Both the position numbers and the translations under genes were made by a program. Below are positions 17,283 to 63,902 of a stretch of DNA of 64,000 nucleotides, in pieces. Each line of letters begins with the position of its first letter. The stretch's first letter is position 1. The DNA comes from an uncultured virus (IMG/VR IMGVR_UViG_2061766007_000472) (Duplodnaviria > Heunggongvirae > Uroviricota > Caudoviricetes): IMG/VR virus record IMGVR_UViG_2061766007_000472. One strand, written 5' to 3'. Below the pieces are notes generated by a model, which searched no databases, was not told the origin of the DNA, and worked only from the letters and a program-made list of their open reading frames with translations.

Positions 17283-17732
17283 ATGGTGAGAATAAACAAA
17301 ACTGGAAGAAGGGGAAAATACAACAACGCCCACACTGGGACTTTCACCCCAGTAAATCCCCAGAAGTTCAAGGGGAAATACAGACCTGTATATAAATCCG
17401 CCCTTGAACTTANNNNNNNNNNNNNNNNNNNNNNNNNNNNNNNNNNNNNNNNNNNNNNNNNNNNNNNNNNNNNNNNNNNNNNNNNNNNCTGGACAAGTCG
17501 GAAAAACCAGAGAAGATAAGGAACTATCACATAGACTTCGTGATTTACGCTAAAGTAGGGGATTGCATAAAGAAGATGTGGGTGGAGATTAAGCAGTCTT
17601 CCGAAACTAGAAAGCCAGTCAATGAAAGCGACGTAATGGGGTGGAAAACCTGGATTNNNNNNNNNNNNNNNNNNNNNNNNNNNNNNNNNNNNNNNNNNNN
17701 NNNNNNNNNNNNCCGAAGAACAGCTCGACTGA
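17283..17732 (+). CDS. head completion nuclease (T4 gp4-like, TnsA-type)
   Basis: GTFTPVNPQKFKG..YKSALE, YHIDF, VEIK, C-terminal EEQLD. Confidence 0.75.
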
Positions 17733-17749
17733 GGGGTAAATATTTCAGT

Positions 17750-18808
17750 ATGGAAATCCACAGTTATAATCAGGAGCTTGCCATAGCGAGCACTTAGTTC
17801 AAGCGTTTCTTCAACAACATCTCTATAATGAGGGATGGCAAGGAAACCAAGTTCGGATGCGTCATAGGAAACAGGTCAAGGGTATTCAAAAATCTGGAAA
17901 ACCCAAACAAAAACGGCGAGTACAATCTTCCGATGATTATAATACAGAGGACTGGTATAACCAAAAACAACGACAGGCTCACAAACATAAACAACGAAGT
18001 CAAATATGCAACTCATTCTGGACGCCTGAATTACAACCTGTACACTCCAGTTCCAATAGACATATCTTTTTAGGTCACGATAGTGTCAAAAAGACAGGGA
18101 GATATAGACAAGGCGCTGTCGAATTTCATACCGTTCTTCAATAAAGACGCGTTCGTGAGATACCAGCACCCAAAGTTCGAAAAACTTTTCATGAAGTGTC
18201 AGGTGATAATGGACGATACGATAACCGAAGAGCATCCAGAGCAACTTGACGCCTTGGATTACGATGTCGTGACCTGTACATGTAACTTTGTGTTCAAGAC
18301 TTGGATTTTCTGCGGCAACGACAAATCGGCTGGAAAGAACGGAGAAAGGATACACCACATAATATCCACATACGTCGACCCAGACGGAGACGGAATATCT
18401 GATGTCATTTCTGTCATAACAGATACGGAATACGACGGATTCCTACCTACTATAAGGCAGATAAACGTCGGATTCTATCCAGTTCCAATCATTTCAGATT
18501 ACCTGCAGCACATGGAGTGGGTAGATTCCCTCTGGCCAGCTGGATACGACGACCACCCATTCGTTGACAGGCTTATATGGAAAATAGACGAAAGCGGTGA
18601 AATTACAGGACAGGTCGGAAACTCATACCACTATCCTCATTATTCATCCGAATATCTGTCTGGATATTACGATGAAAGAAGAGTGTCTTGTGACGGGTTC
18701 ATAAACGGACAGTTATCAACCTACAACTATCTTTCTGGCCCAGACGACGACCATAAGCCATACGGTCTTCCAATAATGTCGGACGACATGAACATCGACC
18801 GTGTATAA
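17750..18808 (+). CDS. tail terminator/sheath stabilizer (T4 gp15-like), 352 aa with TAGs at 17795 and 18071
   Basis: MEIHSYNQELAIAST*FKRFFNNISI...LPMIII...PVPIDISF*VTIVSK...FIPFFN; three track ORFs in one frame; GTAAATA at 17736-17742. Confidence 0.7.
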
Positions 18809-30354: not shown

Positions 30355-30368
30355 ACAACGGAGATACG

Positions 30369-30966
30369 ATGAAAGATAAAGCAGAATTATTCAGTTGGCT
30401 AATTAACAGGAGAAATTATAAGAAANNNNNNNNNNNNNNNNNNNNNNNNNNNNNNNNNNNNNNNNNNNNNNNNNNNNNNNNNNNNNNNNNNNNNNNNNNN
30501 NNNNNNNNNNNNNNNNNNNNNNNNNTCTCTGGAAAGTTCAGACAAATTCGATATCATATTCATAGATGGTATGCATCTCTGTGATTATGTCTACAAAGAC
30601 ATACAGAATTCACTTAAACATTTGAATGAGAACGGAATAATTTTTTGTCATGACATACTCCCATGGTCAGAGGCAATGCAAAGGAGAAACACAGAATGGT
30701 ATACAAACGGTAGAGATTTTGCGTGGAGCGGAGATTGCTGGAAGGCATTTGCATATTATCTGAAACGCTCTGAATATATGTGCTTTACGCTGGACTTCGA
30801 TTGTGGTCTAGGAGTAATAGACACTTCGAACAAGAGAAGCTCAGAACAAGACACAACTTGTTCCAAAGAAATGACAGAAATGGTATATGAAGATTATGCT
30901 AACAACAGAAACTCATGGTTGAACGTAAAGCAAAAAGACTATATATTTGAATATTTTGGTAATTGA
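30369..30966 (+). CDS. class I SAM methyltransferase
   Basis: FDIIFIDGMH...KDIQNSL..L..NGIIFCHD...WSGDCWKA. Confidence 0.7.
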
Positions 30967-30986
30967 TATATACGTATAATATTCCC

Positions 30987-31955
30987 ATGAATATAGTAAT
31001 TTTCGGTGCAAGCGGAATGCTCGGCTTCGACCTGTCCAGCTACCTTAAATCTTTACCCAATCATGGTTATAATATCGTCTGGCAAATCGCAACCCCCACG
31101 AGAAACGAAGTCGACATCTCCGATAGGATAAAGGTCCAGCACTATCTCACGACCATGAAGGCCGCTGGATACGACGTAGTGATAAACTGCGCAGCAGCCA
31201 CTGACGTGAACGGGATACAGTCGTGCGTCTCGGAAGAGACCAACTCGTATTCTATTAACGCCCTGGCACCAAAATACGTCGCAGAAGCCTGCAAAAATCT
31301 GAATATGCGCCTAGTCCACATATCCACGGACTACGTATATTCAGATAAATCCCTCAATACGTCGACATATCACGACGAGTTTCCAGCCAACATCTACGGA
31401 TACCACAAACTGATTGGAGAGCTTTTCGTAAAAAGCGCAATGCCGTCCAAATACACGATAATAAGAGTCGGATGCCTGTACGGAATGCACAGGGAAAAAT
31501 CATTCGTCCACAAGTTCCTAAAGAACGCGGCCAGTTCAATAAGGTACAAGGACTACTCCCCAACGGTCGTAAACTACTAGAAGTCGACCCCTACATCAAC
31601 GATGTTCGTGTGCGACATAATCCTAAACGTGCTCGAAAACGGAATATACGGAACCGTTACCACGTCTCCGCAAGGAGCGGCCAACAGATTCGAATTCGCC
31701 AGCAAGATAATAGAACTAGCAAACGAAACTGGGACCTTCCCAGACGAACTTAAGTCCGTTATTGTAAAGAAGGATTTTTGCGAGTTGAACCACTTTATTC
31801 CGTCTACTTCGTGCATGGGCAGAATAAACCAGACATCGCACATCGGATACGATTTTCCGTGGACATGGGAAGACGACCTGAGAAGATTCATGGAGGAAAA
31901 CTCTGAATTGTTGTCGAATTGGTTCAAGGCGCTCTTAAAGGAAAATGAGAGATGA
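30987..31955 (+). CDS. rmlD: dTDP-4-dehydrorhamnose reductase-like SDR (TAG at 31578)
   Basis: GASGMLG, VINCAAATDV, HISTDYVY, YGYHK; VVNY*KSTPT puts TAG at the conserved Q of the dQxxxPT motif. Confidence 0.8.
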
Positions 31956-32617: not shown

Positions 32618-32966
32618 GGGATTCATCGAGGGACAAGTCGCCATAGTGCGGGATTAGACAGAATGGGGTGATTTCATCGTCCGAACACAGGACGGGGACT
32701 ACCACGTAGACTTCGACGACGGATACTACCACCAGTGCGTGGCGAAAAAGCTTGACGGAAAGACCGTTAGGCTCGGATATTATTCAATGGAGACGAATCC
32801 AGACGGAACGAAGTGGGTCCAGGCTGGAGACGANNNNNNNNNNNNNNNNNNNNNNNNNNNNNNNNNNNNNNNNNNNNNNNNNNNNNNNNNNNNNNNNNNN
32901 NNNNNNNNNNNNNNNNNNNNNNNNNNNNNNNNNNNNNNNNNNNNNNNNNNNNNNNNNNNNNNNNNA

Positions 32967-34250
32967 AAGTATTTTTTAAGATAATATGCGTAAATTATAA
33001 TAATTACATATATATAAAAAAGTGTTTAGAATCTGTTTTTTCTCAAACATTCAATGATTTTTTCTTAATTGTTGTTGATGACATAAGCACAGACGATTCA
33101 CCAAAAATATGTGAAATTTTCAAAAAGCGTTATCCATCAAAAATGGATTTTATAAAGTTGAAGGAAAAAAGACACGCTGGCGGCGCGAGAAACGAAGGAC
33201 TTGATTATCCGATTGAATCTGAATATACTTGGTTCATAGATAGTGATGATTATCTGTACGATAAAAATGTTTTGGATAAAANNNNNNNNNNNNNNNNNNN
33301 NNNNNNNNNNNNNNNNNNNNAAATTGTAATCGAAAAACCAGAAATATATAATATTTTAAAAAGCGGGATGCAGCCCTGGAAAAGCGTATTTCGTTCATCA
33401 ATAAAGACCAGATTCGTCGAGAAACGAGCTAAAAATAACGATATGGTGTGGGGATTCAAACTCTTTGATTCTGTTGACGACAAAAAAGTAATATCAGAGG
33501 CATATCCGTGTTATGTATACAATAAAACATCTACTACATCATGTCAGAATAATTTGTCTACGATGATAAAAAAAGAATGNNNNNNNNNNNNNNNNNNNNN
33601 NNNNNNNNNNNNAAATCATATAGAAAAATGTAGATGACATTATTTCTAGGTGGAGTAAATGGACAAAGGAAGAAATATCTATTCAGGAATTTTTCAGGAA
33701 TTCATTCATGATTACAATCGACGATTCAAAATTCCAATTTGAGATGTCGATATTCTAGTCTTTCTTCGGAAAATATAAACCAACTAAAGTTAATGGTTCC
33801 CACAACAAAAAATTAACTGGCCCCCAAAATTGTTTAATGTCTNNNNNNNNNNNNNNNNNNNNNNNNNNNNNNNNAATCTTCCGTTTGTCGTCGTTTTTGA
33901 AGATGACGCATACCCAAGAATAAATTGTGCTGAGCTTCTTGAGCAATACATAAGAATAATACCAAGAGATGCCAATATGGTTCTTCTCGGATGGTCAAAC
34001 CACATGAAACAAAGACCATAGAAATTCAACCAATTTTTNNNNNNNNNNNNNNNNNNNNNNNNNNNNNNNNNNNNNNNNNNNNNNNNNNNNNNNNNNNNNN
34101 NNNNNNNNAACCATATATAATAATGTTGGAACAACATATATATTAAATGAACCCCTATTCATCCAATATTCATCTCAAAAAAGTATGAACAAACACGTTG
34201 GGTATATTTTTTACGGGGACCACAACGAACCACCAGACGGATTTTTAAAA
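32967..34250 (+). CDS. GT2 domain followed by a GT25-like domain, probably one fusion protein across TAGs and gaps
   Basis: YIKKCLESV..Q..VVDDISTD, GGARNEGL, FIDSDD (GT2); QNCLMS...VVFEDDAY (GT25). Confidence 0.6.
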
Positions 34251-34365
34251 NNNNNNNNNNNNNNNNNNNNNNNNNNNNNNNNNNNNNNNNNNNNNNNNNN
34301 NNNNNNNNNNNNNNNNNNNNNNNNNNNNNNNNNNNNNNNNNNNNNNNNNNNNNNNNNNNNNNNNN

Positions 34366-34787
34366 CTGGAGAGAGTGCAAGTGTTTTCGCAAAGTCAAAA
34401 AGAGTAAAAGAGATATGGTGTGTTGACCCGTGGCTTCCTGGTTGGGATGATAATGCCAAAGCATCATCATCAGATTATGTAGAGGTAGAAAAAGCGTTTG
34501 ATTGTGNNNNNNNNNNNNNNNNNNNNNNNNNNNNNNNNNNNNNNNCCAGGATTTTTATGCTAATCACAAAACTTTAAAACCAGATTTTGTATACATAGAT
34601 GCAGTTCACACATACGATGCATGTAAAAAAGACATAGAAACGTCTTTAAAATGGAAAAGCCTAANNNNNNNNNNNNNNNNNNNNNNNNNNNNNNNNNNNN
34701 NNNNNNNNNNNNNNNNNNNNNAAGTTTAAAAAACCAAATAAAGTATTCAAAGAAACGTCGTGGGTCATAAATCTTAAAAAACGCTAA
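34366..34787 (+). CDS. SAM methyltransferase domain (start in gap)
   Basis: GESA...IWCVDPW...DFVYIDAVHTYDACKKDI. Confidence 0.6.
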
Positions 34788-34805
34788 ATCAGTAAATATC
34801 TTCAA

Positions 34806-36617
34806 ATGAAATGCATTTCAAAACATTTGAAGAAACTCCAGGAAGAGAAGCTGATAGCCAAGGAAGACGGAGAAGGCGGAGCTCCAGCTGGAGGGGGCGG
34901 AGACGGTGGAGTAGTCGCACCACCAGACGGCGGAGCAACATCCGATTCAANNNNNNNNNNNNNNNNNNNNNNNNNNNNNNNAACTGGACTTTCCACGACA
35001 GACATACTCGGAAAGTGCGACCACAGGAAAGACGGAGTGTTCGGGCCAGGATGCTTCCATCTTCCATGCGTGTGGTCGATTCCGTGCTATAGGCTACCNN
35101 NNNNNNNNNNNNNNNNNNNNAACCTCGTAAACGAGGAAGACCAGTTCAACCTTTTTGAAAGAGACGCCAAGTACGTAATCCAGAAGGAAATCGACAAGGC
35201 ACAGAAATGGCTTGACAGAATAGACCCAGAGATTTCCCTTGAATACACCGAAGATTACGAGTTCAACGGGGAAAAATCAGATTGGGTTGCTGCCCTTGAC
35301 CAGGAAAACCAGGAAAACATAAAGACGTTCACAGTCGCATTCAACCTTAAGGCTCTTTACGAGTTCCTGTACGAGCAGGGATTGGAAATGGATGAACTTG
35401 AACTAAACCTGTAGATAAAGGTTTCGCTTTGGCACGAAATCGGCCACGCGCTCATCAACTATTTCAGGGACATGGAGATTTACGATTTCGAGGTGTCTNN
35501 NNNNNNNNNNNNNNNNNNNNNNNNNGAGGAATTCGCAAAATACCAGATAAAGAAATTCACTGGCGTGTACAAGTCAAGGTTGAATGATTTCGTGAATGAG
35601 ATTTTCTCTAAACAGGAAGCAAACGAAGAGGAAGTTCAGGAAACAAAGGGAGATATCCTAACAGACTTCAAGCAACCGATAAACCTTGCCAATAAGAAAA
35701 GATTCCTAGGTAAGAACGACGGTCCTCTACAGGGAAAGAAATTCGTGGTTTCCGACATTCTCATTCCAGGAAGTTCAAATCTGTTTGTAAACCAGAACAA
35801 CAAGGACGTTGTCGCCGCGATAAACAGGCACGGAATGCTCTGTCTACAAGTCGAAGCCCAGCCAGAGGACGAAGACGAACAGGATTTCCTCAAGCTTTCT
35901 GTGGACGACAGGAAGAGATTTGTCGACATAATTCTGAACATCCAGAAGTACCTAGACGACCCCAAGGACGATTTCGAGCTTGACGTTGCGTCTGAATTCG
36001 AGAAAGTTTCAGAAGAAGACAGGAAAAAACTCGCTGACAGATATTCCATGCTCATAGGTGGAACAAGGCAGATATGGTACAGGCCAACTCTCATAGACGT
36101 AATAAGGATATGTCACATAGGAGGAGTCGGAAGCCTTCCCCTTGAGCTTCTTGCAAAGCTGGACGACCACGACCACCAGCACCAGAAAAGATACATCGAG
36201 TCCAATCAGCTAAACGAATCGGTTGCCGACCATTCTTTCGTGAAGGACATGTACAGGCTCCAGAGCATGAAAAGCCATTTCGCACCAGACAGATGGACGC
36301 TTCTCACGAACGACTACAAGGCAGACACAGACCTAGGTTATGACGTATACACGATAAGGCTCACGAAATCGAATGGAACTGGAACCAACTACATATTCTC
36401 GTCTGGAGTTCTCTTCGGTTACGACGAAAGCGACACAAGGTTGCAGACAGTATACTATATCGAACCGTGCGAGGTAATCTACATGCTTCAAAAAGGATAG
36501 GTCCTGAGCGGTGACGATAAAAACGTTAGCACCAGGCTCCTTTGGGCGTGTTTCCAGAATCTAGTACAGAAAAAAGCGTTCGCAGGACATGCGGACAGAA
36601 GAACTGGATACAATTGA
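34806..36617 (+). CDS. large late protein with HExxH zincin-like motif (TAGs at 35412 and 36498)
   Basis: Read-through gives LNL*IKVSLWHEIGHALINY and extends the ORF to TGA 36615-36617; GTAAATA at 34792-34798. Confidence 0.55.
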
Positions 36618-36630
36618 TTCCGTTCTTCAT

Positions 36631-36667
36631 AAAAAGAAAAGGCCAGGAGAAATCCTGGCCTTCTTTC
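36631..36667. terminator. bidirectional intrinsic terminator
   Basis: aaggccagga-gaaa-tcctggcctt hairpin between convergent genes. Confidence 0.75.
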
Positions 36668-36683
36668 GTTCTGGTCAATTCAA

Positions 36684-38252
36684 TTATATCATTCCGCCGA
36701 CTCTTCCACCAGCATCGAATATGCTCTGCACGAAGTCTGGAGTATATCCGAAGTAATCCTCGCTTGGGCGGTAGTACCAGTCGTCGTCAAGCCTACCCTC
36801 GTCTCCCCTGTCGAAATGGTAGTACCACTGAATAGGAGTCTTTGAAGCCGAGTCAAATGCCCTTCTGAGCATGGCAACGAAAACGTCGAGGTCGTCTGGG
36901 GTCTTTCCAGACATCGTCCTCAGCATCCTCTTCGTCCTCTTGAACTCCTCGTCGTCCGTTCCGATTCCCTTTGATACCTCTTCTCTTTCGGTCCCGTCGT
37001 TCTTGACAATCGTGTACTTTATCGTACCATCGCTTCCAACTTCCGTTATGGTTATCCGCTTGATTCCACGCGCCTGCGTCTCCGCGTCCTTTTTCGCCTT
37101 CTCTTCTGCGGCTTTCTTTTCATCGTCTGCGTGGTTCTTGTTCCACGAAGCCATTATCTCGGCTGGGCTCATGACCTCTCCGACCATTTCCTCCTCGCCG
37201 ACATCTCCACCCAGCTCACTCTTGTACATGGTAATCAACCTTTCGAGCTCGGCCTGGTTTATCATATCTTCCTTGCCCTTGAGCGTTTCAAGGGATGCAA
37301 GCATCTTCTTAAGCTCTGGCTTCGGGAGACCGCAGTTCAGGATATTCGTGAACGTGTCTATTATCTCCTTGCCGTTTCCATCTTCGCTTTCCCTTATGTT
37401 CCACGTAGCCGAGTCGAACTCTCCGCGCTGGTCGCGTTCTTTCTTCTTTTCGTTGCCGTCCATGTCGAATCCAGTTTCAAGCTCGTCCTTTCCGACCAGA
37501 TTCTGGAAATCCTCCCGTGTATACGCCCCGATTTTTTCTGCCATGTCCATTAGCATCCTTCCAAATCCGTCAATGCTGTACGGCGCGGAAATGTTGTCTG
37601 TTCTATTGGATATATATTGTCCGTTATTAGCTGCCATCAAAGCAAACCTAGGCCACGAGTGGTCCCTGAAGAACTTCTCACGCTTTTCCTGCGGAAGCTT
37701 CCTCATCATGTTGTATTCCTTGTCGATGAGATTTCTTACCGCGTCGTCTACTAGCTTCTTCGCCTTTGCCTTCGGAACCATCTTGTACATCGTATGGGAT
37801 TCTCCAGACTCTTCGTCATCGACATAGGTGTTCACGAACTGGAAATTTTCAGACGCATTCTTTATTTCTCTGTCAATCTCGTTGAATACGATTTTCATCA
37901 CCCTTTCGCGTTCGTAGCTTTTCACCTCATACCATTCGTCATATGCTCCGTCAGCACTGTAGTATTCCGTGTCAAAATGTGGAGGTTCGCTGTTGGAGTC
38001 GTCGAGCACTATCGTAAAATCCTCCCCACTTCCAAGAAGTGTTGCCGACCAGCTTTCAAGACGCTTTGACTTTAGCTCCTGGTTTATGCTTTTGACTATT
38101 TCCTCGAAATCTTCCTTCTTGAATCCCTGTAGCGTAGCCTCGTCTATTTGCTCTGGTCCGATTTTTTCTGTTACATACGTTCCATTTGCCTTCGCCTCTT
38201 CACTTTCGAAAAGGTTTGCCCAGTGGTTGATGATTCCCTTGTCAAGATTCAT
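36684..38252 (-). CDS. acidic hypothetical protein, possible virion internal protein
   Basis: 522-aa ORF; repeated (L/I/V)xE motifs (LFES, IDEA, IRES). Confidence 0.55.
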   Translation of the reverse strand: MNLDKGIINHWANLFESEEAKANGTYVTEKIGPEQIDEATLQGFKKEDFEEIVKSINQELKSKRLESWSATLLGSGEDFTIVLDDSNSEPPHFDTEYYSADGAYDEWYEVKSYERERVMKIVFNEIDREIKNASENFQFVNTYVDDEESGESHTMYKMVPKAKAKKLVDDAVRNLIDKEYNMMRKLPQEKREKFFRDHSWPRFALMAANNGQYISNRTDNISAPYSIDGFGRMLMDMAEKIGAYTREDFQNLVGKDELETGFDMDGNEKKKERDQRGEFDSATWNIRESEDGNGKEIIDTFTNILNCGLPKPELKKMLASLETLKGKEDMINQAELERLITMYKSELGGDVGEEEMVGEVMSPAEIMASWNKNHADDEKKAAEEKAKKDAETQARGIKRITITEVGSDGTIKYTIVKNDGTEREEVSKGIGTDDEEFKRTKRMLRTMSGKTPDDLDVFVAMLRRAFDSASKTPIQWYYHFDRGDEGRLDDDWYYRPSEDYFGYTPDFVQSIFDAGGRVGGMI

Positions 38253-38375
38253 GTCGTGNNNNNNNNNNNNNNNNNNNNNNNNNNNNNNNNNNNNNNNNNN
38301 NNNNNNNNNNNNNNNNNNNNNNNNNNNNNNNNNNNNNNNNNNNNNNNNNNNNNNNNNNNNNNNNNNNNNNNNNNN

Positions 38376-38593
38376 AAGTTGATTCCGTTTCAGACGGTAT
38401 GTCTGGAAGGGTTTTCCTCGACCCTGGGAAGGACGACAAGGAGGAAATCGGAACGGATTTCGGAAAACTCATGTCGGACGCGCTGATGTACGTGGTCAAC
38501 TCCAATGTAAAGGTAGACGAAATCGTTTTTTTATACCGAGACAGAAAATACGGTTAGATGTTCAAGAGGTTTAAGATAAATACATATGATTAA
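38376..38593 (+). CDS. C-terminal part of a hypothetical protein (TAG at 38555)
   Basis: VDSVSDGMSGRVF...KYG*MFKRFKINTYD-TAA, ending 2 nt before the tRNA. Confidence 0.45.
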
Positions 38594-38595
38594 GA

Positions 38596-38740
38596 TGCCC
38601 TATAGTGTAATGGTAGCACAGGAGTCTGGGCCGACTAGTTCAAAGGTAGAACGTCCATAAATGGAAGATTGCAGTTCAATTCTGATATTGGCCTTCCACT
38701 AAAACTCTGGGATTTGGTTCAAATCCAAATGGGGCAACCA
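38596..38740 (+). tRNA. amber suppressor tRNA (anticodon CTA, Gln-like body) interrupted by a 71-nt insert
   Basis: Acceptor TGCCCTA/TGGGGCA (U1-A72 as in tRNA-Gln) + A + CCA; D stem GTGT/GCAC; anticodon stem GGAGT/ACTCT; loop CT[insert]CTAAA; T arm TTTGG-TTCAAAT-CCAAA. Confidence 0.85.
38628..38698 (+). ncRNA. tRNA-like insert/intron lacking an anticodon loop
   Basis: Acceptor GGGCCGA/TTGGCCT + T + CCA; D arm GTTC-AAAGGTA-GAAC; short TCCA-TAAA-TGGA hairpin; T-like arm CAG-TTCAATT-CTG. Confidence 0.7.
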
Positions 38741-38745
38741 AAATA

Positions 38746-38775
38746 AAGAAAAGGTCAGTTTTACTGGTCTTTTTA
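38746..38775. terminator. intrinsic terminator after the tRNA
   Basis: aaaaggtcagt-ttt-actggtctttt imperfect hairpin with A/T tracts on both sides. Confidence 0.55.
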
Positions 38776-39190
38776 TTATTTTAAATACTTGAAATTAATG
38801 TCTAAACAAACATATTTACCCTATTCAAGAGGGTATAATATTTCATCCAAGATGGGATAAATAAGAAAGTACAGACACGATTTCAGTTATGGAACAGGAC
38901 TATCAGAGTAAGTTGGAAGAGGAGTTCAGGAGGTCTGAGAGGAACGTCGACATTCCCCTCACGCTTTTCGGAAACAAGAACACCATCGTAGGCGNNNNNN
39001 NNNNNNNNNNNNNNNNNNNNNNNNNNNNNNNNNNNNNNNNNNNNNTCTAACAAGGAGACAAAGATAACCCTTGTTGTCGGAAAGACGATAGAGAACGACA
39101 GGTTTGACTTTCTCCTCGACGGCGAGACCGTTCCAGACATGAAGGTCGTGGAAAACGTGCAGATTAACTGACATTCGAGGCATCTACATC

Positions 39191-41533
39191 ATGACAATCA
39201 TAAAGAGGAACGGAAAGACCGAACAGCTTGCGAAGAAGAAGATATCGGATTCGCTAATAAAGGCAAACAACTCCGTAAAGGACGAAGACAGGCTTACTCA
39301 GAAACAGATAAAGAGGATATCGGATTCAGTGGTCGAGTTCTGCGAGACCCTGGAAGAGCCAATAGACATAGATGTCCTGGAAGACGTCATAGAGCAGAAG
39401 ATAATGGCGAGCGGGGCGTACGAAGTCGCGAAGAAATACATCACGTACAGATACGAAAAGGAAAGAATCCGCCAGAACAAGTCCATCACCGAGAAGCTGA
39501 CCGCCGCGAACGTACAGAACCAGAACGCAAATGTTGACGAATTCTCCTTCGGGGGGAGAATAGGCGAGACCGCGTCATTCATCACGAAACAATACGCACT
39601 GGAACACCTTGTCTCGAAGATGGCGAAGCACAACCACAACAACAACGAGATATACATACACGACCTGGATTCGTACGCGGTCGGGATGCACAACTGCCTC
39701 TCCATTCCTTTTGACAAGCTTCTTAAAGAAGGATTCAACACTAGGCAGTGCGACGTTCGCCCAGCTGGTTCTATTTCAACCGCATTCCAGCTCGTAGCCG
39801 TATTATTCCAAATTCAGTCCCTCCAGCAGTTCGGAGGAGTTTCCGCGACCCATTTGGATTGGACAATGGTTCCGTATGTCAGGAAATCGTTTTTCAAGCA
39901 TTTCAAGGACGGTCTTGAGTTCATAGAAAATCTTAGTATATCAGAATTTATAGATTTCATAATTGAATGGTCTTGCCAGTCTGTAGACCAGGAAATACTC
40001 AAGTCCGATAAATTCAAGAAAATGACCCAAGACGAGAAGATGGAGTGGGGATTCAAAAACGGTTTTCTGAAAAGCGAAAACGGAAAACTCGTTTGCGGGA
40101 AAGAATATATCGAAGTTTCCATAGAGAATCCAGTGTATAAAAAATACGAAAAAACTTATGAATATGCTATAAGGATGACCGAAAGGGAACTCGACCAAGC
40201 CGTCGAAGGTTTCTACCATAACCTTAACACATTGCAATCCAGGTCAGGAGCTCAGTTGCCGTTTAGCTCTGCCAACTATGGAACATGCACCCTCCCAGAG
40301 GGAAGAATGGTGATAAAGGCAATGCTCGACAATTCCATAAAAGGAGTAGGAAAGCTCCACAAGACGGCAATCTTCCCTTGCGGAATTTTCCAATGTATGA
40401 AAGGTGTGAATCGTAAACCAGGCGACCCTAACTACGACCTGTTCCAGCTCGCCCTCAAATCCACCGCGCTCAGGCTCTATCCGAACTATGCGAACGTGGA
40501 CTGGAGCGGGAACGCTGGATACGACCCAGAGAACCCATGCACGTACTTCAGCACTATGGGATGCAGGACGGCAAACGGATGGGACATAAACTGCGACGAC
40601 CCGAAGCTCGGACAGCTCAAAGACGGACGCGGAAATATCTGTCCCGTTACGATTATCATGCCGACTCTTGCTATGCAGTCCAAGGAAAAGGATGGAGACG
40701 TTGTAGAGAACTTCATGAAACTCCTCGACAAGAAGATAAACGAGGCAAGAGACATGCTTCTCGAACGATTCGATTGGATTTGTTCACAGCCAGCGAAATC
40801 GGCAAAGTTCATGTACGAAAACGGGACGATGTACGGATACAAGCCAGAAGAGGGAATCAAGTCCGCGCTGAAACACGGGACTCTCGCAATCGGTCAGCTC
40901 GGACTTGCCGAGACTCTTCAGATTCTCATCGGGTGCGACCACACCACCAAAAAAGGAATGGAACTTGCCGAGAGAATAGAAGGTCTTTTCAAGGAAAAAT
41001 GCGCCAAGTTCAAGAAAGACCTGAAGCTCAACTTTGGAGTCTACTATACCCCAGCTGAGAACCTGTGCTACACGGCCATGAAGAAGTTCAAGGAAAAGTA
41101 CGGGGAAATCAAGGACGTTTCGGACAAGGAATATTTCACGAACTCCATGCACGTTCCAGTATGGCACAAGCTCACTCCGTTTGAAAAGGTCGACATAGAG
41201 TCGAAGCTGACTGGTTTCTCCAGTGCTGGATGCATAACATACGTCGAGATGGACGCGGAGACGAAGAACAACACCGAAGCCCTGGAAAAGCTAGTCAACT
41301 ACGCAATGGACAAGGACATTCCATATTTCGCGGTTAACGTCCCGAACGACACATGCGACGAATGTGGATTCACTGGAGACATAGAGGAAACTTGCCCAAA
41401 ATGCGGAAGCACAAAAATCCAGCGTCTTCGCCGCGTGACTGGCTACCTCACTGGCGACTACAAAACCGCGTTCAATTACGGAAAACAGCGCGAAACCGAA
41501 AACAGGGTAAAGCACAGCGGAACGGAAGCATGA
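39191..41533 (+). CDS. nrdD: anaerobic (class III) ribonucleotide reductase with ATP cone
   Basis: IIKRNG ATP cone, YIHDLD, MHNC, MGCR, TPAENL, CDEC/CPKC, RRVTGYL glycyl-radical motif. Confidence 0.97.
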   Translation: MTIIKRNGKTEQLAKKKISDSLIKANNSVKDEDRLTQKQIKRISDSVVEFCETLEEPIDIDVLEDVIEQKIMASGAYEVAKKYITYRYEKERIRQNKSITEKLTAANVQNQNANVDEFSFGGRIGETASFITKQYALEHLVSKMAKHNHNNNEIYIHDLDSYAVGMHNCLSIPFDKLLKEGFNTRQCDVRPAGSISTAFQLVAVLFQIQSLQQFGGVSATHLDWTMVPYVRKSFFKHFKDGLEFIENLSISEFIDFIIEWSCQSVDQEILKSDKFKKMTQDEKMEWGFKNGFLKSENGKLVCGKEYIEVSIENPVYKKYEKTYEYAIRMTERELDQAVEGFYHNLNTLQSRSGAQLPFSSANYGTCTLPEGRMVIKAMLDNSIKGVGKLHKTAIFPCGIFQCMKGVNRKPGDPNYDLFQLALKSTALRLYPNYANVDWSGNAGYDPENPCTYFSTMGCRTANGWDINCDDPKLGQLKDGRGNICPVTIIMPTLAMQSKEKDGDVVENFMKLLDKKINEARDMLLERFDWICSQPAKSAKFMYENGTMYGYKPEEGIKSALKHGTLAIGQLGLAETLQILIGCDHTTKKGMELAERIEGLFKEKCAKFKKDLKLNFGVYYTPAENLCYTAMKKFKEKYGEIKDVSDKEYFTNSMHVPVWHKLTPFEKVDIESKLTGFSSAGCITYVEMDAETKNNTEALEKLVNYAMDKDIPYFAVNVPNDTCDECGFTGDIEETCPKCGSTKIQRLRRVTGYLTGDYKTAFNYGKQRETENRVKHSGTEA

Positions 41534-41545
41534 GGGAGAACAGCC

Positions 41546-42052
41546 ATGAACTACGCATCTATACTCAAGTGTGACATAGCCAACGGACCTGGATTCAGGA
41601 CATCCCTTTTCGTATGCGGGTGCCTAAGGAAATGCCCAGGATGCTTCAACCAGGAGGCGCAGGACCCGAACTACGGAAAGATTTTCGACGAAAAGGCCAA
41701 GGAAAAGCTGTTCAAGGAAATGTCCATGGAATACTGCAGGGGCCTGTCTCTGCTGGGGGGAGACCCAATGTCCAAGCTCGGCGACATAAGGAAGACGGTG
41801 ATAGACGTATGCAGGGAATCGAAGGAAAGATTCCCAGAAAAGGACATATGGATGTGGACTGGATACACTTTCGAGGAACTTCTGGAAGACGACACATCGA
41901 AAGAAGTGTTCAGATACGTCGACGTCGTGGTTGACGGACCGTTCATAGAATCCCTCAAAGACGTCAATCTGGTATGGAAAGGTTCTTCAAACCAAAGAGT
42001 CATAGACGTTAAGAAGACAATTGAGACTGGTGAAATTATGATTCTGATGTAA
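41546..42052 (+). CDS. nrdG: NrdD activating enzyme
   Basis: ANGPGFR, GCLRKCPGCFN, LGGDP, VDGPF, GSSNQRVID. Confidence 0.95.
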   Translation: MNYASILKCDIANGPGFRTSLFVCGCLRKCPGCFNQEAQDPNYGKIFDEKAKEKLFKEMSMEYCRGLSLLGGDPMSKLGDIRKTVIDVCRESKERFPEKDIWMWTGYTFEELLEDDTSKEVFRYVDVVVDGPFIESLKDVNLVWKGSSNQRVIDVKKTIETGEIMILM

Positions 42053-42070
42053 ACTGTAAATATTCATTGG

Positions 42071-42145
42071 AAATTCAATTACTCGTACTAATTGGGTTTG
42101 CAAATGATTTTGTATCCCCGACTATGTACGAGATAGTCGGGGATA
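42071..42145 (+). promoter_or_regulatory. two-hairpin leader with complementary loops
   Basis: Stem 42071-42099 with loop CTCGTAC; perfect 13-bp stem 42113-42145 with loop GTACGAG. Confidence 0.55.
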
Positions 42146-42150
42146 TTATT

Positions 42151-42800
42151 ATGGAAAATAAGAAGATTAACTCAAATAAACCTAGGCATGAAATAAATTA
42201 TTGGACTAAGGAAAAAGTTATAGAAGAGGCAAAAAAGTATAAATCGAGAAGTGAGTTCTTTAAAGGATGCCAANNNNNNNNNNNNNNNNNNNNNNNNNNN
42301 NNNAATATAATTGGTTAAATGAATGTACATGGTTTTCTACACCAGTAAATTTATTTATAAATGGATATTCGATATATAAATTTGAATTCAAAGAAACAAA
42401 AAGTGTTTATATTGGGCTTACATGTAGATTAAATAAAAGAAATTACTAGCACCATACAGATTCAGAATCATCTGTTTTTAGACATTCCGTAGAAAATNNN
42501 NNNNNNNNNNNNNNNNNNNNNNNNNNNNNNNNNNNNNNNNNNNNNNNNNNNNNNNNNNNNNNNNNNNNNNNNNNNNNNNNNNNNNNNNNNNNNNNNNNNN
42601 NNNNNNNNNNNNNNNNNNNNNNNNNNTGGTGTCGGAAGTAGCTCATTGGGCTCATTGGCAAAGAAATGGACCACAAAAGAAAAGGTTCGTGAAGAAGCAC
42701 TAAAATATACTTCTAGAAGTGAATTTTAGAAAAAACGTGTTGGTGCATATATNNNNNNNNNNNNNNNNNNNNNNNNNNNNNNNNNNNNNNNNNNNNNNNN
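42151..42800 (+). mobile_element. free-standing GIY-YIG-like homing endonuclease gene with repeated small domains (TAGs at 42447 and 42727; end in gap)
   Basis: YSIYKFEF..KSVYIGLT; WTKEKVIEEAKKYKSRSEF and WTTKEKVREEALKYTSRSEF repeats; AT-rich; next to nrdG. Confidence 0.6.
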
Positions 42801-42932
42801 NNNNNNNNNNNNNNNNNNNNNNNNNNNNNNNNNNATAATAACCACACGACCAATATAAAAGAGTTGATATACGGAGTCTCTTTCGTAGAATTCTCCAAGA
42901 ACTACAACCTTGAAGTTGTATAATATACCCAA

Positions 42933-43160
42933 ATGAACAACCTACGCGACATAATATACTCGGTCAGGAACTATTCCGAGCTCTCGATGAAGCTTTCGAT
43001 AATCGGATTCCCAGTTCCGTCGAAGGACGTGTTCGACATGTGCCACCAAGACGACTGGAAGTGGGAGGTGTTATGTACAATAATGGAAGACCTGGTAGAA
43101 AGGGACATGGATTCATTCGAAGTAGACAGGCTCGTTGAAAATGCATTCAACATTGAATGA
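42933..43160 (+). CDS. small hypothetical protein (YSEL.MKL family)
   Basis: Follows GTATAATAT; motif shared with neighbouring ORFs. Confidence 0.5.
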   Translation: MNNLRDIIYSVRNYSELSMKLSIIGFPVPSKDVFDMCHQDDWKWEVLCTIMEDLVERDMDSFEVDRLVENAFNIE

Positions 43161-43163
43161 GAT

Positions 43164-43400
43164 ATGGACCAGTTTAAAGACATAGATTCATATATAGAAT
43201 TGAAGATGAAACTCGACATGCTTGGAGTTGACTATCCCCCAAAATACCTCTTCGACTTTGTCATTACGGAGAAAAAGAACATGGAGAAACACGGTCTTCA
43301 ATCAGCAACATGGTCAAGATTCTGCGAGGCGATGCAATGGAGAGTTGAAAACGGAATCCCACTATCAAAGATGAACAACCTAAATACTGGTCTCATGTAA
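43164..43400 (+). CDS. small hypothetical protein (YIEL.MKL family)
   Basis: Paralogous to 42933-43160 by eye. Confidence 0.5.
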   Translation: MDQFKDIDSYIELKMKLDMLGVDYPPKYLFDFVITEKKNMEKHGLQSATWSRFCEAMQWRVENGIPLSKMNNLNTGLM

Positions 43401-43434
43401 CTCGAATTCAAACATGAATGTATAATATACCAGA

Positions 43435-44139
43435 ATGGACAACAAAAAGTTGACATCTTATGTTTATTCAGAATTATTGACGAGGCTTTCCATTATTAGC
43501 TACCAAGTTCCATTGTTAATCTTCCTAGACGAAGACCTGAGAAAATCCTCCCAGTTCCTTACCAATTTCCACCTTGAGCACGGAATAAGGAACGCAATCC
43601 AGGTCTTGATGTGTTCCGCCTTCTATCTCGTCGGAATAAGGAACAAGACGATGTTCAGGCACTACGTGTGCAAGAAAAGATGGGACGACACCAAGTTCAG
43701 GAACTTTCCGCAGTATCCGCTCGATTCCATGCCGAAATTCTCGTATTACAACTCACAGGAGTCGAGATGGTGCAGGAAATGCTCAGACCACTACAGGCTC
43801 ATATCAGATTACCTTGGATTCATGCTCGACGAACATTGGTTTAGGTACGGACATGAACACAGACTTTGCGAAATGCACGGATTCCTGAGAACTTTTCCGA
43901 TGGAGACGTTCGTGAGACACGGTTATTCGATGCCTTCATTGAAGGACAAAAGCAAGCTACAGCTTCCGTGGAAGAACCTCCCAGTCATGTTCAGGAAAAA
44001 GGACATCATCTCTGGATACAGGAAATACTACAGGTCCATAATAGCAAGTCCACTTGACGCCTTCATCGGCACGAAAAGGGACGTTCCAGAGTTTTTGCTA
44101 GATAAAACGGACCAGCTCCAGTATAATATACAGCCATGA
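43435..44139 (+). CDS. divergent pyrimidine-dimer DNA glycosylase-like protein
   Basis: IFLDED...S...H...Q.L N-terminal pattern and DIISGYRKYY C-terminal pattern; weak. Confidence 0.35.
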   Translation: MDNKKLTSYVYSELLTRLSIISYQVPLLIFLDEDLRKSSQFLTNFHLEHGIRNAIQVLMCSAFYLVGIRNKTMFRHYVCKKRWDDTKFRNFPQYPLDSMPKFSYYNSQESRWCRKCSDHYRLISDYLGFMLDEHWFRYGHEHRLCEMHGFLRTFPMETFVRHGYSMPSLKDKSKLQLPWKNLPVMFRKKDIISGYRKYYRSIIASPLDAFIGTKRDVPEFLLDKTDQLQYNIQP

Positions 44140-44367
44140 ACACAAGGCTTGACATATCTGGGATAAACATGTATAATATAACAGTCCTCAAAAGGCTGTG
44201 GAACACGATGCCATTGGCCATGAAGACCGAGCTGGAACTAGACCTCATGGACAACATAGACAGCAACCTGGCAAGTTGTGCAATCAGGCGATAAAGGACA
44301 GTCTCTTTGGCTATGGAGGCATGTTCGAATTCAGGTTCTTCCTCGCAAAAATATGGATTGAAAGACA

Positions 44368-45240
44368 TGAACGAGAATTCAGAAAAGGAAAATGGAACAG
44401 ACAAAGTTCCAGAAATAAATCAAAACGGTAACTGGGATTGGGAAGAGCCTACGAACGAGGAGTTCGAGCTTCTCAGGAAAAACCTCACGTTCTACAGGAT
44501 TTACACGATAGTGGACGGAAAGAGCGTAAACCTATTCAAGTTCTGGCACAAGAACGAAGAGGAGGCGCTCAGGGTCCTCAACACGTTCAAGGAATGCCAC
44601 CCAAAGTACGGGGACAACTGCTTCTATTCTACGTCTGGATACGTAATGGACCCAGACGGGACAAGGCACGACACCCTGTTCGAAGACATACACGACAAAG
44701 ACGGATTCTTCACGAAGATTCACGACTTTTTCGTGTACTCCATTCCAAGATTCGTCTCTGACTTCTGGTTCAAGGTCAAGGACACAATCTATTTCATAAG
44801 ACACGACCACTCAATGAAGGAGAGCTGGTCACTGGACACCCATCTTCTTGAAGACCTGAAATTCAACCTGAAGAAACTTTCTGAAAGCCACACTGGATGC
44901 CCGAACTTCATGTGCGACAGAGCGAGGGCCGAACTCAAGAAACCAGTCAAGGACGAATGGGATTACGAAGAAGACGAAATGAAGCTGGCTTCCAAAATGT
45001 GGTCCGAAGAGCTTAACACGCTAAGGGAGAACGTACTCCTGTACGAATACTACAGCGGGTACGGAATAGTATCCGACGATGACAAAGACATGAAGCTCAT
45101 CGAAATGAAATACAAGGACACGCTTCCGTACAAGCCTGGGACGNNNNNNNNNNNNNAAGCTGAACTCCCTTGCAAAGGAACGCTGGGAAAACATCTGGAA
45201 CTGGATAAAGGAATACGGAGAAAGTCTATGGGACTAAGCA
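44368..45240 (+). CDS. hypothetical protein (end approximate, gap)
   Basis: Long open frame. Confidence 0.5.
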
Positions 45241-45649
45241 AAGAGGAAGTTGAAAGCATGCAGGAAAGACTGCGTGATTTTCAAGAAAGGCTCGGAATTG
45301 ATGATACCTGTGAAAACTCGGAAAATGGCAGAAAAAACGAAAAGGACAAAAACGAAGTTGTTCCAGAAAAACTGACGGAGCTTTTGAAAAACAACGACCC
45401 CGCTGCAAGCGGAAACGGAATTCTCGACGCCTTTTCCAGCATTCTCAAAAACGGAACTGCTCAGGAGACCAAAATCCTTGAACCGCAAAAGGAAATCGAC
45501 ACAAAGTCATATTTCAGCGACAACATGCTAAAAGAAGAGCTCTCGCTGGAAGACATAATAACAGTCTCGCACAAAGACGGAGACGGGTACAAGGCAGTGT
45601 TCGTGACCATAGGAGACATCGTAAAATTCATCAAAAACAATCTTGACAA

Positions 45650-46393: not shown

Positions 46394-46418
46394 AACATAT
46401 AGTTGTATAATAATAGAT

Positions 46419-47615: not shown

Positions 47616-47645
47616 TATTTTTTGCAAACAGAGGTAATAACAAAA

Positions 47646-49768: not shown

Positions 49769-49770
49769 CG

Positions 49771-61298: not shown

Positions 61299-61863
61299 AA
61301 GATTTTTTAGTTCTGATTTTCATTTCAATTCCTGCTGCCTAATTGACAAGCACCTCCGTCCGTTCAAGTCTGTCGAGAGGATGAACGAAGTATTGATAAA
61401 GAACATCAACCAGCGCTGCTCTGAAGAGGACATCCTTATCCACCTTGGTGACTTCATCCAGTACGGAAAGGACAGGAAATGGCCTGGAATGAAGACGAAG
61501 CCATACGAGTTCATAAAGCAGATTAGGCCAATGTTCACGAACGTAGAGGGAAATCACGACTCGCACAACAACATGAAGTCGGCGTGCAGCTACATGAGAA
61601 CGTACCTTGGCAAGAAGTATCCAGTCTCCATGAGCCACTATCCCTCGAACAACCCGCTCGCACGGGGGACGTTCAGGAAGGGGGACGTTCATCTGTGCGG
61701 TCACGTACACGGAGCGTGGAAGTACCTAATCGACTTCGACAACAAGGTATTGAACATCAACGTCGGAGTGGACGTTTGGAAGTACAATCCAGTAAGCGAA
61801 ACGGAACTCATCGAGTACATAGACTCTATAATGAAGTCAAATGCTGGAATACCCAGAAAATGA
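61291..61863 (+). CDS. calcineurin-like metallophosphoesterase
   Basis: SDFHF, HLGD, EGNHD, SHYP, CGHVH, NVGVD. Confidence 0.85.
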   Translation: MSKRFFSSDFHFNSCCLIDKHLRPFKSVERMNEVLIKNINQRCSEEDILIHLGDFIQYGKDRKWPGMKTKPYEFIKQIRPMFTNVEGNHDSHNNMKSACSYMRTYLGKKYPVSMSHYPSNNPLARGTFRKGDVHLCGHVHGAWKYLIDFDNKVLNINVGVDVWKYNPVSETELIEYIDSIMKSNAGIPRK

Positions 61864-61915
61864 CGTATAATATTTATTACAGGGAACAGAATTCAAAACA
61901 TTCAAGAGATACGAA

Positions 61916-62194
61916 ATGTCTGAAATCGAAGTCAACTCGGACGACAAGCCCGAAAGCGGAAACGGATACCAAATCACCGTTGTAAACATAAAATACGGAA
62001 ACGCGTTGTCGAAGCGTATCAAGGACAGGCCAGAAATGGTCGTCTTGGACCTTCCAGACGCATTGCTTAAATCAAGGGACAAAAACGAGGAAAAGTTCTT
62101 GGATTCGGTGGAGGCATTTGCCTACAACACCGTGTCGAGGAAATACGGAGCCGAAGTATCATATTGCCAGGTATACCTTCCGCTGGAAGGCTAA
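61916..62194 (+). CDS. hypothetical protein
   Basis: Downstream of GTATAATAT at 61865. Confidence 0.5.
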   Translation: MSEIEVNSDDKPESGNGYQITVVNIKYGNALSKRIKDRPEMVVLDLPDALLKSRDKNEEKFLDSVEAFAYNTVSRKYGAEVSYCQVYLPLEG

Positions 62195-62277
62195 GNNNNN
62201 NNNNNNNNNNNNNNNNNNNNNNNNNNNNNNNNNNNNNNNNNNNNNNNNNNNNNNNNNNNNNNNNNNNNNNNNNNNNN

Positions 62278-63902
62278 ACTGTTCCAAAATACATTTTTCT
62301 ATTGTTCTGTCATAGAACTCAAGCCAAGGTCTTGATAATACTTTGTAACTTTTCTACTTGAGTCATTTGTTATTTTTAACATTTGTCCGAGGTTCACGGC
62401 ATCTGTCTATTCAACCGCGTCAGCGACGTTTTTCACGTTCTACCCATACGCGTCTATATCTCCGTATTCTACTACATATATTGTTTTTGGATTGGTTTGT
62501 CTATCATAAACGAGTTGCTCGTATTCATTCTATGATATTTTCACGACCGAAAGGTCGTTATAACCATCAACCTACTATTCATAGTTATTTATGTATATCT
62601 TGTTGTCTACATTTACACTTATCGTGTTGTACACATCATCACTAATTGCAGATATGCACGAAGATAATCCAGACAGAGAAACAGATAGACTTCCGCTTAA
62701 TTCAGAAACCCTTTCATCGAATTTAGAGTCTATTCCGACACTTACGTCCTGAACCGTCCTAAGGTTTACAGCGTCCATAGGTCCATTTGAGTCGCCTAAA
62801 TTTATTATTCGTCTTCCATATGCGTTTAAAATTTCATAGTCAACAATATATATGGTTTTTGGATTTGTTTTCTCATTATATACAAGTTGTTCATATTCAT
62901 CCTGTGTTAACCTTATTACTGAAAGGTCTTCAAAACCTTCAATGCCTTCATGTCCGTTTAATATGTATATCTTGTTGTCAACTTTTACGCTTATGGTATT
63001 ATAAACATCATCACTTAGAGACTAAACACACGATGAAATATTTTCAACTGATAAAGTCAACGAAGATAAATCCGAAGAAATTGTTGAAATCTGAGATGAT
63101 ATGCATGAAATCGAATTTGACAATTCTCCGCTCAAAAACTTAAACTTTCTATTAACATCAGCTTCAATTTCAGAACTCATGGTTTTAAGAGTACCAAGAT
63201 TTACAGCGTCCATTTCAGACGAAGCCGTTCCGACGTTTGAGACTCTTTGACCATANNNNNNNNNNNNNNNNNNNNNNNNNNNNNNNNNNNNNNNNNNNNN
63301 NNNNNNNNNNNNNNNNNGAGAAGCCTTGCGTATTCATCCAGTCCAAGTTTTACAACCGAGAGGTCTGAATAATCACTCAATCCGCAATCTGGATTTATGA
63401 TGAATATTTTCTTGTCTATCTTATCTGATACGTCCGACAAATTACAGCTTAGACCAGAAAGCTGGGAACTAATAGACGATACACAGTCACTTAACCCAGA
63501 AATCTAAGAATCAATAGACGACAGACTGTCGCTAAAATCTGATATCTATGAGTTGATTAACGTAAAATAATCACTTAGGCCAGAAATCTGGGAATCAATG
63601 GATGAAAGATGGTCCCCCAAATCAGAAAGTTCCCCTCCCAATGTAGACAATAGATTTGACAATCCGTCGATGGCTATGTTTGAAAGTTTAGAATCTACTA
63701 TGATTCCCCCACTAATAATACCATCGCGAATAATCGCATTTTCCGAGTTTACAACTCCGCTCAACTCCNNNNNNNNNNNNAACTCACCAAAAAATTTGTT
63801 TTCCCTGTTGCAGAGAATAACCTTCTGAGGGGAATGCCTGTCTTTTGTATCGACGTTAATCGATTCCTTTACCGCTCGGTTATATGGGTTGAAAGTTGCC
63901 AT
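62278..63902 (-). CDS. tail fibre/adhesin-like protein with YadA-stalk-like DAVN repeats and many in-frame TAGs (3' end in gap)
   Basis: Three modules KI(Y/F)I..DLSV....EY..L...YG....N........DAVNL separated by Ser-rich coiled coils; one frame when TAG=Gln, apart from N gaps; GTAAATA at 63937-63943. Confidence 0.7.

Follow-up and report, generated by a model that had tools for sequence, protein, structure and literature searches.

Within a 64,000-nucleotide (nt) stretch of DNA from an uncultured virus of the Caudoviricetes (IMG/VR record IMGVR_UViG_2061766007_000472; the whole stretch is hereafter called the window), positions 38596-38740 hold two tRNA shapes, one lying inside the anticodon loop of the other. 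Our favoured, though still tentative, reading is that this locus represents the phage's amber-suppressor tRNA gene, tRNA(CUA), in which a degenerate tRNA of 71 nt separates U33 from C34. The arrangement, referred to below as a nest, is a variant of a barely described kind of intron first glimpsed in Lak phages. Its parts are as follows.

38596..38627, plus strand: 5' exon of the outer tRNA, positions 1-33, with the acceptor 5' strand, D arm, anticodon-stem 5' strand, C32 and U33 (ARAGORN)
38628..38698, plus strand: tRNA-shaped insert of 71 nt (Rfam tRNA match, minimum-free-energy cloverleaf, D-arm 18-mer present in real tRNA genes)
38699..38740, plus strand: 3' exon of the outer tRNA, positions 34-76, with CUA, A37, A38, the anticodon-stem 3' strand, a 4-nt variable loop, the T arm, the acceptor 3' strand, A73 and an encoded CCA (ARAGORN)
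38748..38784, plus strand: intrinsic-terminator-like hairpin of 12 pairs followed by a T run, directly 3' of the tRNA

With default settings, ARAGORN called no tRNA across the 64-kb window; in intron mode it returned a single tRNA, 74 nt long and spanning 38596-38740, whose anticodon loop is interrupted by a 71-nt intron, and by ARAGORN and Rfam this is the only tRNA-like locus of the window. The program's own intron limits (38629-38699) yield the anticodon GTA (GUA) and lie one base off those proposed in an earlier model-made inspection of the letters, the sequence-only reading. When the limits of the latter were applied and 38628-38698 was deleted by script, default ARAGORN recognised a canonical 74-nt tRNA with the anticodon CTA, the loop CUCUAAA, stems of 7, 4, 5 and 5 bp, a U1-A72 pair and an encoded CCA, just as had been claimed. 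A canonical CUA cloverleaf results from this removal only, with a predicted junction in the spliced RNA that joins GGAGUCU to CUAAAACUCU. The loop CTCTAAA is found in five of six intact phage tRNA(CUA) genes (those of the related contigs L087 and L088 and of four IMG/VR records), the sixth having CTCTAAC. Because the 38628-38698 junction gives CTCTAAA exactly and the syntenic genes of related phages are CUA genes, the anticodon is likely CUA rather than GUA. The exons themselves are free of decay, with all 21 stem pairs being standard or G-U. Besides, T1 is paired to A72 in all three listed reference tRNA-Gln genes as well; the discriminator of the outer tRNA is A, and G in those three genes. 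The U1-A72 pair is a Gln-type acceptor end, and the outer tRNA(CUA) would most likely be charged with glutamine. No sigma-70-like promoter was found upstream of the locus on the plus strand. A hairpin with a T run also follows the tRNA in L087 and L088.

As judged from its sequence, the insert is a real tRNA derivative, because it combines a tRNA D arm with conserved tRNA nucleotides in the Rfam register and has ends that coincide with the splice points. Alone in the window, it exceeds the gathering threshold of an Rfam family (RF00005, tRNA, 38629-38694; 30.5 bits with a cut-off of 29 bits, E = 0.023 for 64 kb x 4227 families), and in this register retains U8, A14, G18, G19, A21, G53, U54, U55, C56, A58 and C61. 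The minimum-free-energy fold of the insert alone is a cloverleaf with a 7-bp acceptor stem (two G-U pairs), a GUUC/GAAC D arm with GG in its loop, a T stem of three standard pairs closing the loop UUCAAUU, and a discriminator U followed by CCA. In this fold a 4-bp UCCA-UAAA-UGGA hairpin takes the place of the anticodon arm, for which the Rfam alignment has 5 bp closing a loop of 2 nt; the insert is thus devoid of the 7-nt anticodon loop on a 5-bp stem by which a tRNA decodes. When the register is set by the CCA, the insert extends from its +1 base at 38628 to the last base of the CCA at 38698, and both are the splice points. The D-arm 18-mer has 83 exact matches in reference genomes, 51 of them inside tRNA genes (Asn 23, Gly 13, Gln 3, Trp 2, and others). 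The sequence-only reading had described a second tRNA-shaped RNA with ends at the splice points and a tetraloop hairpin unable to decode, and in both respects the present data agree with it. An origin of the insert from a host tRNA was considered and rejected (a 21-mer gave 0 matches, and the D-arm 18-mer is generic to many tRNA types).

Other kinds of intron were likewise discarded. Being 71 nt long, ending in A and not in G and having no Rfam intron match, the insert is no group I intron or ribozyme, as had been argued before for group I; over 38400-38900, a search at E up to 10 supported only tRNA and no ribozyme family. A bulge-helix-bulge built on the GGCC/GGCC helix would, on inspection, put the 3' cut 3 nt early and leave a 10-nt loop. 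The insert is not an assembly chimera of this record either, since Logan contigs from two runs (X1 and X2) carry it unchanged: they span 38376-38918 with 0 differences, the two being runs of one sample and not independent samples. An assembly chimera had been named in the sequence-only reading as a possible refutation. For a related phage in run X4, no contig covers about 38590-38780, which is uninformative either way.

A protein-anchored scan of metagenome contigs yielded two syntenic relatives of this locus, L087 and L088, which share with the window a small open reading frame (ORF) directly upstream of the tRNA.

38378..38593, plus strand: C-terminal part of the small conserved ORF; TAG in frame at 38555-38557, TAA stop codon at 38591-38593, separated from the tRNA by 2 nt
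L087, c533-607: intact tRNA(CUA) after the small ORF
L088, c1762-1856: intact tRNA(CUA) after the small ORF

The N-terminus of the ORF is hidden by an N run (38259-38375); in alignment its identity is 81% to the L087 homologue (82 aa there) and 53% to that of L088. L087, which is 92.6% identical to window positions 36000-37192, has a small ORF that ends in ...KYG(TAG)MFKRFKINTYD and is directly followed by an uninterrupted 75-nt tRNA(CUA), the acceptor stem of which is identical to that of the window's outer tRNA, the other arms being different. In L088, the small ORF is followed by an uninterrupted tRNA(CUA) with a long variable arm. The three related phages therefore carry three different tRNA(CUA) bodies in one slot after a common small ORF. 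Because the L087 and L088 genes are intact and their bodies differ, we regard this place as a suppressor-tRNA slot with an exchangeable tRNA body, and the window's insert as lineage-specific. The L087 tRNA is itself unusual in having no D-loop GG and a T loop UGCAAAU, and it falls below the Rfam gathering threshold. L089, the only IMG/VR relative by small-ORF alignment, has the ORF and no tRNA after it. Further searches for kin of the locus were largely negative: an intron-less junction probe had 0 matches in metagenome contigs, GenBank phages contained no near match to window positions 30000-50000 (only the 5' exon was matched, to tRNA-Trp genes of Bacillus phages), and the 522-aa and 607-aa neighbours had no relatives in IMG/VR, nor the latter any in GenBank phages. 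At 80 loci anchored on NrdD (59-71% identity) no homologous tRNA lay beside NrdD, and the records behind five of these loci gave no match below E = 0.1.

This rumen phage is T4-like, as evidenced by UvsY, gp32, a gp15-like sheath stabiliser, a gp46-like nuclease subunit, a primase, a DnaB-like helicase and NrdD/NrdG, and the sequencing runs in which it occurs bear the label bovine gut metagenome. The window contains 66 N runs (e.g. 38259-38375, 48151-48606 and 60580-61186), so that parts of many genes are hidden. The following genes bear on how the phage reads TAG.

61837..63213, minus strand: tail-fibre-like gene (matched by Pfam YadA_stalk and T7 tail fibre; 9 TAG in frame)
17540..18808, plus strand: T4 gp15-like tail sheath stabiliser (PF16724 over residues 74-278; TAG at residues 86 and 178)
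30963..31955, plus strand: RmlD-like reductase (PF04321 over residues 9-312 in one stretch across a TAG at residue 206)

Repeats within the tail-fibre-like gene place TAG (written #) opposite glutamine (LTQDEYEQL versus IS#NEYEQL, and IDSQISGLSD versus IDS#ISGLSD), and the TAG shared by the window and L087 in the small ORF is CAG (Gln) in L088. Read from these alignments, the phage decodes TAG as glutamine; it needs TAG decoding, because in-frame TAG codons occur in the tail-fibre-like, gp15-like and other genes, opposite Gln or CAG. With its nine codons, the tail-fibre-like gene depends on a TAG-reading tRNA. Together with the intact tRNA(CUA) genes in the slot of L087 and L088 and the shared loop CTCTAAA, this supports the earlier proposal that the outer gene is an amber suppressor. 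It had also been stated that virion genes require TAG read-through, which holds for the tail-fibre-like and gp15-like genes; TAG is concentrated in tail-type genes, yet occurs in the RmlD and glycosyltransferase genes, too.

How might such a gene give rise to a functional tRNA? The leading mechanism, for which we claim somewhat less than even confidence, is excision by RNase P plus a second cut after the CCA, followed by ligation. The insert would then behave as a protein-dependent intron that has kept the parts which tRNA end-processing enzymes recognise, namely an acceptor stem, a D/T-loop elbow, a discriminator and CCA. Bacterial RNase P recognises the stack of acceptor and T arm and the RCCA end, and the corresponding features of the insert are its acceptor/T-arm stack (with a weak T stem), the elbow nucleotides of the D and T loops, and the discriminator plus CCA. 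From the known specificity of the enzyme, a cut at the insert's +1 base would leave U33 with a 3'-OH and the insert with a 5'-phosphate, and C34 would receive its 5'-phosphate from another endonucleolytic cleavage, immediately 3' of the insert's CCA. The outer tRNA's own helices would hold the two halves together until an ATP-dependent RNA ligase seals them. There is a known parallel to this last step: in the T4 anticodon-loop repair system, which consists of the PrrC nuclease, Pnkp and Rnl1, 3'-OH and 5'-phosphate ends are ligated, and T4 Rnl1 closes nicks between tRNA positions 33 and 34. The window locus resembles this system in the site of breakage and rejoining and in its T4-like phage context, with the ligase being proposed here; it differs in that the T4 system repairs a nick without removing an insert, and in that Rnl1 and Pnkp were not found in the window.

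The architecture is not confined to this window. We surveyed 20 tRNA-cluster regions from 14 IMG/VR records, in which ARAGORN gave 250 default tRNA calls and 8 intron calls. One record, G023, encodes a 76-nt tRNA(UAU) with a 73-nt tRNA-shaped insert at 36/37. This insert has a perfect 7-bp acceptor stem, a discriminator G and CCA, and its removal from +1 to CCA leaves the 7-nt loop CUUAUAA. Inserts of this type, at least 95% identical, occur in four IMG/VR phage contigs (G023, G050, G054 and G055); a fifth pattern match lay within coding sequence and was rejected as chance. A further nest, in G030, is a tRNA-Glu(UUC) gene with a 121-nt insert at 36/37, in which an acceptor-like strand comes first and a T-arm-like hairpin with the partner strand comes last, the tRNA-like module filling only part of the intron.

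L178, 9188-9336: tRNA(UAU) nest (G023)
L194, c1487-1634: tRNA(UAU) nest (G050)
L198, 230-378 (-): tRNA(UAU) nest
L200, 242-390: tRNA(UAU) nest
L176, 12518-12714: tRNA-Glu(UUC) nest (G030), with the outer tRNA matched by Rfam at 43.1 bits across the insert

At its homologous locus, G050 has a different outer tRNA body. Between the two types of outer tRNA in the G023 family, five outer pairs have changed on both sides with pairing kept, which was reached in 0 of 500 shuffles; this comparison comprises four sequences and effectively one divergence. Conservation is higher in the insert than in the outer tRNA; the insert shows a change at one pair, on one side only. Selection thus acts on the outer helices in this family. 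The G023-family nests share with the window's nest that a 7-bp acceptor, a discriminator and CCA fill the insertion and that its removal leaves a 7-nt loop. In contrast, they occupy 36/37 of a sense tRNA, are unrelated in insert sequence, and keep a 7-nt loop in the insert, which is closest to the phage's own tRNA-Gly(UCC) (45.8 bits). A homology between the two inserts was rejected (21.7 bits, rank 37 of 74, reflecting only generic tRNA likeness). The sequence-only reading had proposed to look in related phages for suppressor tRNAs with an insert at 33/34: the window's insert itself had 0 matches in IMG/VR, whereas its architecture recurs at 36/37 of tRNA(UAU).

Further interrupted genes were observed. 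Four tRNA-shaped genes in four phage records have 42-57-nt inserts in the anticodon region, with a hairpin GTGTCT/GGTCTT...AGACAC/AGACC followed by (A)CAGCAA. Their predicted anticodons and insertion points differ, and they may represent a family of non-decoding RNAs or of mini-introns. Besides, ARAGORN called three suppressor-type tRNAs (UCA, UUA and UUA) with putative group I-like inserts of 201, 188 and 736 nt, respectively.

L073, 9519-9651: hairpin-CAGCAA gene
L058, 11461-11588: hairpin-CAGCAA gene
L068, 8668-8791: hairpin-CAGCAA gene
L173, 10916-11036: hairpin-CAGCAA gene
L049, c10950-11224: tRNA(UCA) with group I-like insert
L183, 2411-2675: tRNA(UUA) with group I-like insert
L196, c1543-2366: tRNA(UUA) with group I-like insert

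The closest described precedent stems from Lak megaphages. Devoto et al. 2019 (Nat Microbiol, PMC6784885) report introns that are not of group I, measure 79-141 nt and interrupt sense tRNAs (Tyr, Phe, Thr, Gly) within the anticodon loop, with alleles with and without the intron and a mechanism that the authors call enigmatic; the Thr(UGU) intron has an Rfam tRNA match and "itself may encode a tRNA". In our reading of their Table S6, these introns resemble the window's insert in lying in the anticodon loop of a phage tRNA and in having a tRNA-like module that abuts the 3' splice site. They differ in that a 5' hairpin and an A-rich linker precede the module, whereas the window's insert starts at the acceptor stem, and in that they follow the anticodon and end in CA, whereas the insert lies at 33/34, ends in a discriminator plus CCA and splits a suppressor. 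Sequence conservation across related phages, as in the Lak type, has no counterpart here, given that no second genome with the window's insert was found. The novelty assumed in the sequence-only reading is therefore lower than it seemed, as phage tRNA introns, including a candidate that encodes a tRNA, had been reported already. Literature searches, covering the papers listed and passages of the Borges preprint, retrieved no paper after Devoto et al. 2019 on the mechanism of such introns.

Two other systems are related in part. Like group I (IC3-type) tRNA introns, the window's insert lies in the anticodon loop and hides its gene from tRNA finders, and by the ARAGORN call the 201-nt intron of the L049 tRNA(UCA) even shares the 33/34 position; unlike them, it is only 71 nt long, has no Rfam intron match and ends in A rather than G. 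Archaeal and eukaryal bulge-helix-bulge introns are likewise short and protein-spliced, as is proposed here, but by inspection none of these motifs would yield the right product here, the context in the phage is of bacterial type, and 33/34 is non-canonical.

A number of observations weigh against our reading of a spliced suppressor. The insert's T stem has just three standard pairs, its Rfam score is barely above the cut-off, and ARAGORN sees the insert alone at a lowered threshold only; in the minimum-free-energy fold of the whole precursor (about 145 nt), the outer helices form and the inner cloverleaf does not, with unremarkable z-scores. The window's insert is a singleton: both syntenic relatives, L087 and L088, are without it, and IMG/VR gave 0 matches for the exon-gap-exon pattern, a 24-mer of the 3' exon and a 30-mer of the insert. 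Cleavage exactly 3' of an encoded CCA is not known as a general enzymatic activity of bacteria. Among 74 ORFs of the window that were scanned, none matched an RNA ligase family and none was an Rnl1 or Pnkp, consistent with the earlier remark that no ligase was identified in the window, and the ligase-like ORFs of G023 and G054 (see below) have no homologue in the window. The five records with sister inserts, three of which are complete genomes, gave 0 RtcB matches, 0 Rnl1 matches in a search whose controls were empty as well, and only weak PF09414 matches. Finally, no RNA run was among those listed as holding the phage, and the window covers 64 kb of a probably much larger genome, in which a second intact tRNA(CUA) may lie elsewhere.

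This last point underlies the strongest rival, a dead insertion, in which a recent tRNA-derived piece inactivated the suppressor gene and TAG is read by a second suppressor tRNA elsewhere in the genome. We deem this improbable, yet a serious contender: besides the size of the genome, the uninterrupted slot of both syntenic relatives and the lack of splicing enzymes among the window ORFs, it is in its favour that other large rumen phages keep tRNA(CUA) inside big tRNA clusters. However, the exons are intact, the junction recreates the consensus loop base for base and the ends of the insert are exactly tRNA processing ends, none of which sits well with an inactivated gene. Moreover, the analogous G023-family nest persists in four phage contigs with compensatory change in its outer helices.

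The search for ligases in nest-bearing phages touches on a second alternative. In four of five such records, an ORF of 203-460 aa has a near-threshold, weak match to PF09414 (RNA_ligase), and the two of these that were scanned against Pfam (449 and 458 aa) have a sub-threshold PHA02142 OB-fold match, too; the ligase-like ORF of about 450 aa had no sequence match in PDB.

L202, 453-1829: candidate RNA ligase ORF (G023), near-threshold PF09414
L203, c869-2218: candidate RNA ligase ORF (G054), near-threshold PF09414

Among 21 near-complete records, 10 have a PF09414 match, and all five records in which non-group-I inserts had been observed are among these 10, an overlap with a chance of about 0.012 by hand arithmetic on which we do not rely, the records being related and tRNA clusters having been scanned in 14. 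Rnl1 was found in one of five NrdD relatives and in none of the five nest records, in a search where that family's controls also gave nothing. The splicing chemistry might be a different one, with an endonuclease that leaves a 2',3'-cyclic phosphate and a 5'-OH for a host RtcB-type ligase to join, and with the tRNA shape serving as a recognition or folding module and not as an RNase P substrate. In support of it, the emptiness of the sister-insert records for RtcB and Rnl1 (both 0/5, the Rnl1 controls being empty as well) means that a host ligase may be needed, RtcB occurs in 10 of 14 control genomes, Bacteroides thetaiotaomicron among them, and the tRNA-like module fills only part of the Lak introns and of the L176 insert. 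Nonetheless we consider this chemistry rather unlikely, as by inspection no bulge-helix-bulge with a 7-nt loop can be drawn, no ribozyme family appeared at E up to 10, and the 5' junction equals +1 of the acceptor stem exactly in two independent families.

Alternatively, the transcript could remain unspliced as a stable, double-tRNA-shaped RNA, for instance as a decoy that draws anticodon nucleases or enzymes of RNA repair, similar to T4 RNA C and D. Such phages do have other insert-bearing tRNA-shaped genes, e.g. the four-member hairpin-CAGCAA family, but that the loop halves form the exact suppressor loop, in a slot where relatives carry an intact suppressor tRNA, renders this very unlikely. 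Least credible to us is that the intron evolved to delay TAG read-through until late translation or to shield the anticodon from nucleases: the concentration of TAG in tail-type genes would suit it, and timing would follow if splicing needs a phage enzyme, but relatives have intron-less suppressors at the same slot, analogous inserts occur in sense tRNAs (UAU and Glu-UUC), RmlD and glycosyltransferase genes contain TAG as well, and there was no signal of a T4-type late promoter, its consensus TATAAATA having 2 matches versus 1.8 expected (6 versus 4.4 for a local variant). The purpose-built code switch of the sequence-only reading is therefore not supported. Given that similar nests are present in sense tRNAs and that the suppressor of relatives has no intron, we take the insert for a probable passenger of a recurrent kind, tolerated and possibly mobile, and not for a device that times a switch of the genetic code.

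Returning to the spliced suppressor, a broader generalisation can be drawn, which we regard as doubtful: gut and rumen phages might harbour polyphyletic tRNA-shaped introns whose ends are set by ordinary tRNA end-processing, with RNase P acting at +1 and another cleavage falling just behind the discriminator or the CCA, and whose exons are sealed by a repair-type ligase. Such introns may have originated as fossils of RNA repair. In this scenario, a mature tRNA with a 5'-phosphate and a CCA-3'-OH would have been joined erroneously to the halves of a tRNA whose anticodon loop a host anticodon nuclease had cleaved, and the mis-ligated product would then have been copied back into DNA; position 33/34 is the PrrC site. 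If this generalisation were true, self-splicing and the bulge-helix-bulge endonuclease would be joined by a third way of splicing tRNA. If the nests are spliced, this would reveal an uncharacterised protein-dependent tRNA splicing route in bacteria and phages, assembled from enzymes of tRNA maturation and repair; RNA ligases of bacteria and phages would gain a routine substrate, and the altered genetic code of the phage would depend on RNA processing. Because default tRNA finders miss such genes, with none called in the window, surveys of suppressor tRNAs in recoded phages will undercount them.

Several minor observations concern the surroundings of these loci. An Rfam skipping-rope RNA (RF02924, L068 10262-10409, 45.9 bits) lies beside phage tRNA genes. 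In the window itself, the phage, which reassigns a stop codon, has a gene for a PTH2-type peptidyl-tRNA hydrolase (54064-54627). Furthermore, the window holds a full chaperone set (GroEL-, Hsp20-, GrpE-, DnaK- and DnaJ-like genes) as well as a block for the salvage and synthesis of nicotinamide adenine dinucleotide (NAD), with nicotinate phosphoribosyltransferase (NAPRTase), cytidylyltransferase-like and NAD synthase genes.

8592-10229, 25059-25604, 46419-49614, 59028-60302 and 51346-56613: chaperone and NAD-block regions of the window

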